Shown: in pieces, positions 1,610 through 3,230 of the stretch
Numbering within the stretch: the first letter of the stretch is position 1
How the letters are laid out: every line of letters begins with the position of its first letter
Source of the DNA: a virus
Taxonomy: Duplodnaviria; Heunggongvirae; Uroviricota; Caudoviricetes
Virus record (IMG/VR): IMGVR_UViG_2541047861_000014
Direction: 5' to 3' (one strand)
Length of the DNA stretch: 37,035 nucleotides
Made by a program: the position numbers and the translations under genes
Notes under the pieces: model-generated
What the model was told of the DNA's origin: nothing
The model's database searches: none
The model's input: the letters and a program-made list of their open reading frames with translations, nothing else

Positions 1610-1786
1610 CGGTTTGTATCACCTGAACATAACCAAATCTCCTAGCACACTTTGAGCGAGATGTGAGCGTTAAGTTTACGCCATTGTGTTGACATAAGAG
1701 GGCACGGGTATAGATATCATCACTATCCCTATGCCCCTAAATCGCTCCTGCTATTTGATAAATGCAGATGTTTACTGGATTTGCCC

Positions 1787-2692
1787 CTATATTTCCAGAC
1801 ACCTGTTATCACTTAACCCATTACTGGCTTGCTGCCGTAGATATTCCCGTGGCGAGCGATAACCCAGTGCACTATGCGGATGCCATTCGTTATAATGCTC
1901 GAACGCCTCTGCAAGGTTCTTTGCTGCCGTTAACCCGTCTGGTTTGGGCATGACACTGATGTAGTCACGCTTTATCGTTTTCACGAAGCTCTCTGCTATG
2001 CCGTTACTCTCCGGACTCCGCACCGCCGTGCTCTTCGGTTCAAGCCCCAACATCCGGGCAAACTGCCGTGTTTCATTAGCCCGGTAGCATGAACCATTAT
2101 CCGTCAGCCACTCTACTGGAGACGCCGGAAGCTCGTTGCCGAAGCGGCGTTCCACCGCTCCCAGCATGACGTCCTGTACTGTTTCACTGTTGAAGCCGCC
2201 CGTAGTGACCGCCCAGTGCAGTGCCTCACGGTCACAGCAGTCCAGCGCGAACGTGACTCGCAGTTTTTCTCCGTTATCACAGCGGAACTCGAACCCGTCA
2301 GAGCACCATCGCTGATTACTTTCTTTCACAGCCACTCTGCCTGTATGTGCCCGTTTCGATGGCGGTACAGCAGGTTTTCGCTCAAGCAACAGCGCATTCT
2401 GGCGCATGATCCGGTAAACACGTTTGGCATTGATCGCAGGCATACCATCAAGTTCTGCCTGTCTGCGAAGCAGCGCCCATACCCGACGATAACCATACGT
2501 GGGCAGCTCTCCGATAACATGGTGTATACGGAGAAGCACATCCGTATCATCAGTGTGACGACTGCGGCGGCCATCCATCCAGTCATCGGTTCGTCTGAGA
2601 ATGACGTGCAACTGCGCACGCGACACCCGGAGACAACGGCTGACTAAGCTTACTCCCCATCCCCGGGCAATAAGGGCGCGTGCGCTATCCAC
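1787..2692 (-). CDS. insD: IS2 transposase OrfB (InsD), DDE domain
   Basis: 301-aa ORF recognised as IS2 InsD; overlaps insC in the -1 frame as in IS3-family elements. Confidence 0.9.
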
Positions 2693-3015
2693 TTTTTTGC
2701 CCGTCCATATTCAACGGCTTCTTTGAGGAGTTCATTTTCCATCGTTTTCTTGCCGAGCAGGCGCTGGAGTTCTTTAATCTGCTTCATGGCGGCAGCAAGT
2801 TCAGAGGCAGGAACAACCTGTTCTCCGGCGGCGACAGCAGTAAGACTTCCTTCCTGGTATTGCTTACGCCAGAGAAATAACTGGCTGGCTGCTACACCAT
2901 GTTGCCGGGCAACGAGGGAGACCGTCATCCCTGGTTCAAAGCTCTGCTGAACAATTGCGATCTTTTCCTGTGTGGTACGCCGTCTGCGTTTCTCCGGTCC
3001 TAAGACATCAATCAT
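2650..3015 (-). CDS. insC: IS2 transposase OrfA (InsC), HTH
   Basis: Begins [24 protein letters not shown] (121 aa) after trimming the ORF-track N-terminal extension; classic IS2 OrfA. Confidence 0.88.
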
Positions 3016-3230
3016 CTGCTCTCCAATGACTAGTCTAAAAACTAGTATTAAGACTATCACTTAAATAAGTGATATTGGTTGTCTGGAGATTCAGGGGGCC
3101 AGTCTATTTACCACCAAATGTTTTTGATACTATAGGTTGATTCATGATTTACCTAGAAACTTAGTTGTAACGAAAACTTCTTAACGGACACTATCTGGAT
3201 AAAGTTAGTTTTTTATTTAAGAGGGTTAAC

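Follow-up and report, generated by a model that had tools for sequence, protein, structure and literature searches.

A recently transposed IS2 element between the integrase gene and an accessory gene of a prfC-integrated lambdoid prophage

We analyzed a stretch of 37,035 nucleotides of tailed-phage DNA (IMG/VR record IMGVR_UViG_2541047861_000014; here called the window) in which a complete IS2 element lies between the integrase gene (int) and an accessory cargo ("moron") gene of a lambdoid prophage. The best joint explanation, which we consider highly probable, is that IS2 recently transposed into the int-cargo spacer, most likely leaving the recombination functions of the prophage untouched and possibly altering expression of the cargo gene. 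Few bacterial insertion sequences have been studied as well as IS2, and there is nothing unusual about an intergenic copy flanked by a clean 5-bp duplication; the insertion matters only if the switching-on of the cargo gene changes.

The IS2 element and its target site

Read directly from the window, the element is a complete IS2 (IS3 family, IS2 group) of 1,331 bp on the minus strand (positions 1776 to 3106). On the plus strand, its letters run from TGGATTTGCCCC... at 1776 to ...GGCCAGTCTA at 3106 (in longer reads of the ends, TGGATTTGCCCCTATATTTCCAGACA... starts at 1776 and ...GGGGGCCAGTCTA finishes at 3106). The reverse complement of this interval begins with the left end of IS2, TAGACTGGCCCCCTGAATCTCC, and finishes with its right end, GGGGCAAATCCA; the element is therefore assigned to the minus strand, with its transposase reading from right to left. 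The right terminal repeat (IRR, the donor end; 1776 to 1816, minus strand) holds the 3′ end of the element, ...TGTCTGGAAATATAGGGGCAAATCCA, and abuts the int side, and the left terminal repeat (IRL; 3065 to 3106, minus strand), which starts TAGACTGGCCCCCTGAATCTCCAGACAACC..., abuts the cargo gene. Their lengths, 41 bp for IRR and 42 bp for IRL, are those described for IS2 (PMC3299598). An inverted repeat with 32-nt arms that are 78% complementary was detected. In a slight correction to the initial annotation, the termini that it called matching are the imperfect repeats usual for IS2.

The element carries two overlapping open reading frames on the minus strand. The first, orfA (InsA/TnpA; 2650 to 3015; 121 amino acids), encodes a protein identical to that of K-12 and matches NCBIfam NF006928 over residues 1 to 121 of 121, together with Pfam HTH_Tnp_1. 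The second, orfB (1787 to 2692; 301 amino acids), encodes the DDE/rve catalytic domain (Pfam rve, rve_3, and HTH_21) and matches NCBIfam NF006918 over residues 1 to 301 of 301. The NCBIfam models "IS2 repressor TnpA" and "IS2 transposase TnpB" were thus matched over their full lengths and above their cutoffs. The A6G window (AAAAAAG; 2692 to 2698, minus strand; IS position 409), whose role in programmed −1 frameshifting has been described (PMC3299598), joins orfA to orfB.

Compared with IS2A of K-12 MG1655 (NC_000913, 381260 to 382590), the copy in the window has the same length and no indels, with 97.7% identity (30 substitutions). The two also share OrfA, the A6G window, the rve domain of OrfB, the 41- and 42-bp ends, and a 5-bp duplication. 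They differ in a handful of amino acids of the full-length OrfB, and the ends are those of K-12 IS2 except at IS positions 42 and 43 (IRL) and 1305 (IRR). The changes at positions 42 and 43 turn AA in K-12 into TT at the center of the palindrome CACTTAnnTAAGTG (3058 to 3071), which covers the reported OrfA-repressor site (PMC3299598); its half-sites are unchanged. A megablast search of 5,426 complete Escherichia coli genomes with the element returned full-length 100% matches at many unrelated loci, where the annotation is IS3-family/IS2 transposase, and the exact variant is widespread (727 records at ≥99%). No second copy was found in the window. A length of about 1.33 kb with ≥95% nucleotide identity to reference IS2, the terminal repeats, A6G-joined reading frames, helix-turn-helix and rve domains, and the 5-bp duplication are expected of IS2 and are all present, and by these sequence features the element is the already-known IS2, an isoform of the K-12 reference. 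Its intact features and the identical copies at many loci suggest that this copy is presumably active.

The element is flanked by directly readable copies of TTTAC at 1771 to 1775 and 3107 to 3111, where the empty site has a single TTTAC. We searched for a synthetic empty site of 600 bp in total, composed of 300 bp from the left, one TTTAC, and 295 bp from the right (according to a second description, 300 bp from the left that already include the TTTAC are joined to 300 bp from the right). At least 33 complete E. coli genomes contain it in one piece with 100% identity over the 600 bp, and 71 complete genomes match it at ≥80% coverage. The isolated phage 2H10 likewise carries the site without a break, and the orthologous modules of other genera run straight through the insertion point. 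Because the single-TTTAC site exists intact in at least 33 genomes, the duplication is, by this comparison, not a chance repeat. The simple transposition of an intact IS2 proposed by the initial annotation, and its placement between int and the cargo gene, are borne out; the element starts 166 bp past the int stop codon (1609). A slight correction applies to the other side, where the distance from the last IS2 base to the ATG at 3231 is 124 bp rather than 123 bp, or 119 bp excluding the duplicated TTTAC.

The initial annotation regarded the transposition as probably recent and called for a comparison with IS-free relatives. We probed the 5,426 complete genomes with 400 bp spanning the left IS2 junction and found the junction in none of them. 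The sole match at 80%, in strain bR_120_Kylling, was rejected, as it consists of two joined pieces and is a different IS2 insertion ∼640 bp further on, inside the downstream gene. In contigs encoding the exact cargo protein, all 10 of the 10 places listed had no IS between int and the gene. Among IS-free relatives, the prfC prophage of NCTC11151 is the nearest; it is 99.96 to 100% identical over the whole window and lacks IS2: there are no differences over positions 1 to 1775, and positions 3107 to 37035 are 99.956% identical (14 mismatches and 1 gap in 33,930 bp), giving 15 changes over 35.7 kb. Phage 2H10 (NC_049950; Glaedevirus; 46,288 bp), likewise without IS2, shares the region of int, cargo gene, xis, early genes, and lysis genes (99.4 to 99.5% identity over positions 114 to 21047) but has different head and tail-shaft genes, with homology lost after 21365 and returning only at the distal tail genes. 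With the empty site present in at least 33 genomes and phage 2H10, the comparison marks the insertion as the derived state. Since the junction is absent from the genomes searched and the NCTC11151 twin is nearly identical, the insertion is, as judged from these sequences, real, recent, and private to its source strain within the collections searched.

We give next to no credence to the alternative that IS2 is ancestral to this phage lineage and was lost elsewhere or that it is an assembly artifact. The uninterrupted single-TTTAC sequence occurs in the 71 genomes, in phage 2H10, and in orthologous modules of other genera, and precise loss of IS2 in all of the IS-free relatives is implausible. 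Nor would a misassembled repeat produce a clean duplication of 5 bp that the empty site has only once. We found no points in favor of either version. Under the preferred reading of a recent transposition, the OrfAB transposase would have been produced by −1 frameshifting at A6G, as established for IS2, and would have processed the donor copy first to a figure-of-eight and from there to a minicircle. Insertion of the abutted ends into TTTAC, cut with a 5-bp stagger, would have been followed by repair that duplicated those 5 bp.

The absence of the IS2 junction from the 5,426 complete genomes makes it a strain-specific marker. The near-isogenic IS-free prophages (NCTC11151 and 2H10) also offer a natural experiment, allowing the effect of the separation of distal upstream sequence (see below) on the accessory gene to be measured.

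The prophage module

The prophage is lambdoid and is integrated in the 5′ end of prfC. The window opens in the yjjG-prfC spacer and contains the first 23 codons of prfC. As identity with 2H10 starts at position 114, we place the attL core region, i.e., the prfC 5′ end shared by host and phage, at about 114 to 160, consistent with the prfC start and the yjjG-prfC context. Reading away from attL is int (386 to 1609, plus strand), which encodes a tyrosine integrase of 407 amino acids (Pfam Arm-DNA-bind_3, Phage_int_M, and Phage_integrase; PHROG 1). The cargo gene (3231 to 3950, plus strand) follows IS2, and the excisionase gene xis (4233 to 4427, minus strand; 64 amino acids) is convergent with both int and the cargo gene. 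The xis product matches PHROG 1553 (E = 6e-36) and is annotated as an excisionase in 2H10. Beyond xis are a DUF551 gene and then yfdR/yfdQ/yfdP-type genes, and the rest of the window is lambdoid prophage as far as the tail genes.

This is the layout of the KplE1/HK620-type recombination module (intS-torI; PMC2951348), in which int adjoins attL and reads away from it and the excisionase is encoded on the opposite strand in an early operon. Both modules have accessory DNA between int and the excisionase gene, and both have neighboring early genes of the yfdP/yfdQ/yfdR type. They differ in the integration site, which is prfC for the prophage in the window and argW for the KplE1 type. In KplE1-type modules, the int promoter lies at attL, which it overlaps, is repressed by Int and RDF, and is not shared with the excisionase gene (PMC2951348). 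In the window, int adjoins attL in the same way, and the RDF gene is not cotranscribed with int. Upstream of int, four TGTACA repeats (320 to 376) are candidate binding sites only, and there are weak promoter-like matches in the same region.

In the absence of IS2, the spacer between int and the cargo gene is 285 bp. The insertion interrupts no open reading frame, and its transposase reads against the direction of int and of the cargo gene. In ∼400 genomes with related integrases (80 to 94% identity), the window is matched only as far as the int stop codon (∼1609 to 1640), and the DNA from there onward is therefore cargo, outside the int module. A consensus scan of positions 1 to 4600 revealed no intrinsic terminator between int and IS2. 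The RNA fold of 1605 to 1775 is unexceptional (z = −1.3), and a hairpin at 1700 to 1737 was rejected as the int terminator, as it is without a U-tract.

The spacer and its neighbors after insertion

The cargo gene faces IRL, and IRR faces the 3′ end of int. The native IS2 promoter (PIRL) is located immediately inside IRL and is directed inward, and both the strong junction promoter (Pjunc) and the fusion promoters that activate neighboring genes use an outward −35 element in IRR (PMC3299598, PMC9330008). The 150-bp right end of IS2 by itself has no detectable promoter activity (PMC12095673). As IRR points at int, the known route of activation by IS2 is unavailable to the cargo gene.

Orthologues of the cargo protein with 81 to 85% amino acid identity occur in three other contexts: after a umuDC-like pair at the end of a Cronobacter prophage (L018), beside an AraC-family gene (L024), and next to a gene of the SnoaL-like type (L025). 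Upstream of the ATG, the nucleotide homology of L018 and L024 to the window reaches −157/−162 and no further, and L025 aligns from the same point, which defines a conserved upstream block of about 160 bp that begins at window position 1738 (TAAATCG...). Within it, the best-conserved noncoding stretch comprises 1738 to 1775 plus 3107 to 3142, and IS2 sits in its middle, at −124. The distal half (1738 to 1775, plus strand; TAAATCG...AAATGCAGATGTTTAC) has been split off by IS2, and the proximal half (3107 to 3142, plus strand; ..CCAAATG..GATACTATAGGTTGATT) is still attached to the gene. The E. coli version is 9 bp shorter than the three orthologues directly after TTTACC.

Several features stay on the side of the gene. 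A predicted promoter-like element, TTGTAA-N18-CACTAT (3165 to 3194, plus strand), is retained downstream of IS2 and is conserved with L024, L025, and the more distant L028, whose counterparts read TTGATA/CTGTTA-N18-TATTAT/TATCAT (pattern TTGnTA-N18-TATnAT). A Shine-Dalgarno sequence and an extended −10-like TGaTACTAT (3125 to 3133) also remain attached to the cargo gene. We ran a consensus promoter and terminator scan of positions 1 to 4600 and a position weight matrix (PWM) scan of the spacer both with and without IS2. None of the spacer's promoter candidates rose above the window background: the best PWM score was 8.3, against a 75th percentile of 8.3, and the consensus scan returned zero. 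With no candidate above background, the cargo promoter cannot be placed from sequence alone, and the true promoter could lie in the displaced part, for example, at the TTGACA at 1689 or in the block at 1738 to 1775.

Three effects of the insertion on its neighbors were weighed. The initial annotation suggested that IS2 could affect int/xis expression and thereby excision. That it cripples excision through disturbed expression of either gene is, in our estimate, very improbable. The int 3′ untranslated region is altered 166 bp past the stop codon, and some antisense RNA over the int 3′ end could arise from read-through of the transposase gene or from a weak hybrid promoter at IRR. Against this, the int and xis open reading frames and attL are identical or near-identical to those of IS-free relatives, including 2H10, a phage isolated as virions. 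Furthermore, int has its own upstream region beside attL and xis belongs to the early-left operon on the opposite strand, leaving no common promoter for IS2 to cut. Because IS2 lies 3′ of int and 1.1 kb past the 3′ end of xis and adds just 1,336 bp (+2.9% of the 46.3-kb 2H10 genome), the recombination functions are most likely untouched, with excision and packaging unaffected. We also regard it as quite unlikely that the cargo gene is switched on by a new promoter brought in by IS2. IS2 fusion promoters do activate neighbors (ampC, acrEF, and neoR) (PMC9330008), and in the ampC case (Jaurin and Normark 1983, via PMC9330008), as here, IS2 is located just upstream of the gene, within promoter distance. 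There, however, the −35 element comes from an IRR that faces the gene, which is the documented mechanism (PMC9330008, PMC3299598), whereas the cargo gene faces IRL. The weak outward candidate inside the left end (TTAAGA-17-GATATT; 3048 to 3076; score, 6.9) scores at the median of random windows, and the only hybrid on the IRR side, TGGAAA-17-TAAACA, has a poor score of 4.2 and would be directed antisense into int. Replacement of the native promoter by IS2, one of two options that the initial annotation raised for the cargo gene, is therefore unlikely.

Displacement of the native promoter, the other option, is partly supported: the conserved upstream block is indeed cut at −124, but the best-conserved sigma-70-like element (3165 to 3194) is retained. 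That IS2 silences or deregulates the cargo gene, with the native promoter or an essential operator lying within the portion of the block displaced by 1.3 kb or upstream of it, is a tentative possibility that we hold to be real but the lesser one. In its favor, the best-conserved noncoding stretch is split midway, and the displaced side has a perfect TTGACA at 1689 and a TTGATA at 1755. IS2 polarity would also abolish int read-through into the cargo gene. The classical gal/IS2 work found IS2 to be strongly polar when entered against the direction of its transposase, and our literature search on orientation-dependent IS2 polarity yielded nothing usable. On the other side, the TTGnTA-N18-TATnAT element shared with L024, L025, and L028 is kept, as is TGaTACTAT, with its −35 position filled by the duplicated TTTAC, and the displaced candidates are all without a good −10. 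We infer that the cargo gene is insulated from everything upstream of −124, i.e., from the distal 38 bp of the block and from any int read-through. With these lost, expression of the cargo gene may change, and lowered or deregulated expression is more likely than raised expression. The probability that remains after loss or deregulation and activation, which is the larger share, falls to no meaningful effect on the cargo gene.

The cargo protein and nearby insertions

The cargo gene (PHROG 8440, "unknown function") encodes a protein of 239 amino acids and is AT rich, with a GC content of 31% (also given as 30 to 33%), compared with 49% for the whole window. The protein had no match in Pfam, PADLOC, NCBIfam, a PDB sequence-profile search, or BFVD Foldseek, and none of 10 distant family members had a Pfam match. 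A profile search collected 924 representative clusters at E ≤ 0.001. The protein thus belongs to a large unannotated family, and the accessory gene is of more interest than the IS2 beside it.

Across 35 members with 20 to 54% identity, D63, Y109, R119, H136, R143, and H149 are invariant, and the motif R143-H-N-F-A-A-H149 (Rx5H) is invariant in the 22 close as well as the 35 distant members. HEPN domains are defined by an Rx4-6H motif, typically with a polar residue after the R (PMC3710099), and carry it where helix 3 of an up-down four-helix bundle ends; the cargo protein has such a motif with a polar residue in that position. In the AlphaFold model (pLDDT, 86.5), the protein is a four-helix bundle in which the motif terminates the third long helix (130 to 148), with a beta-hairpin and then the last long helix after it; in structure comparison, unrelated helical bundles score equally with this model. 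Sequence-profile searches (Pfam, NCBIfam, and PADLOC) matched neither the cargo protein nor its distant relatives to a described HEPN family. As the invariant Rx5H appears to be placed where the HEPN motif lies and has a polar residue after the R, we give slightly better than even chances to the cargo protein representing a new HEPN-type RNase family, and we treat this candidate assignment as a lead, not a result.

A more far-reaching reading would combine this lead with the insertion: IS2 would have uncoupled a conserved cis-regulatory block from a stand-alone HEPN-type toxin or abortive-infection gene, not recognized before and located beside int. This insertion and the independent IS2 and IS1 hits within or near that gene in other strains would then be the outcome of selection on a costly prophage defense gene, to silence it or retune it, and not neutral noise. 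We consider this unlikely.

Other, independent insertions were seen in this part of related prophages. Strain bR_120 has an IS2 inside the cargo gene (∼3743 to 3747), strain 2013C-3033 has an IS2 with a CTAAC duplication at window positions 4034 to 4038, and GPEC1222 has an IS2 in the opposite orientation at 5110 to 5114. CUVET16-321 has an IS1A at ∼4075 to 4090. A hot spot for insertion sequences near the cargo gene was considered, and we do not claim one: 3 of the top 60 relatives of the left 6.7 kb are IS bearing, in addition to the window and strain bR_120, and for the following 25 kb, roughly 8 of its own top 60 relatives carry insertion sequences, of several types (by record spans and feature names), a similar IS density per kilobase. 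The three other IS2 insertions in relatives have 5-bp duplications, as does the one in the window.

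The cargo protein family

The 239-aa protein encoded by the cargo gene (window 3231-3950, plus strand) belongs to a large, unannotated family that comprises 924 clusters at 50% identity and for which no Pfam match was found. An R143-x5-H149 motif is invariant in the family and ends helix 3 of a modelled four-helix bundle, a position that, judging from the model, would be the same as that of the motif in HEPN RNases. The family is a candidate for a new HEPN toxin or abortive-infection family.

The IS2 target and other IS insertions

When the insertion site was aligned in its empty form (a single TTTAC, with IS2 removed), the E. 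coli module was found to lack 9 bp (TAACCAATA-like) right after TTTACC (window 3111/3112) relative to three orthologous modules from other genomic contexts, and this gap directly adjoins the IS2 target. On the int side of the element, an imperfect hairpin (GGGCACGGGTATAG...CTATCCCTATGCCCC) at window 1700-1737 occupies exactly the stretch that separates the last int-module homology from the first bases of the conserved cargo block. No U-tract was observed at this hairpin, and the predicted RNA fold of the surrounding spacer was unexceptional.

Within the IS2 copy itself, the palindrome CACTTAnnTAAGTG (window 3058-3071, corresponding to IS2 positions 36-49) carries a change of its centre from AA to TT. 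This IS2 variant is widespread, and the change leaves the palindrome half-sites as they were. The reported OrfA-repressor binding site falls within this palindrome (PMC3299598).

Related prophages in other strains carry four further independent IS insertions (three of IS2 and one of IS1A) in and around the cargo gene and the early-left genes. In window coordinates, these map to ~3743-3747 (strain bR_120), 4034-4038 (2013C-3033), ~4075-4090 (CUVET16-321), and 5110-5114 (GPEC1222), and one of the four breaks the cargo ORF. The IS density in this region is not clearly above that in the remaining prophage.

Prophage mosaicism and early-left annotation

The prophage is a mosaic, as seen when window 21048-34560 is compared with locus L007. 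The isolated IS-free phage 2H10 has the left 21 kb in common with the prophage but differs from it in the head and tail-shaft module, which in the prophage is of the ClpP-protease/capsid fusion type, and homology returns only from the distal tail genes.

Within window 4233-5047, the excisionase ORF (4233-4427, minus strand) is unannotated in RefSeq relatives, and the intact 206-aa DUF551 ORF is represented there by pseudogene fragments only. Both ORFs are entered as genes in the record of phage 2H10.

Four TGTACA repeats lie at window 320-376, directly 5′ of the int start codon and within the attL arm. These are candidate arm-type Int sites or operator sites, possibly comparable to those of autoregulated KplE1-type int genes.
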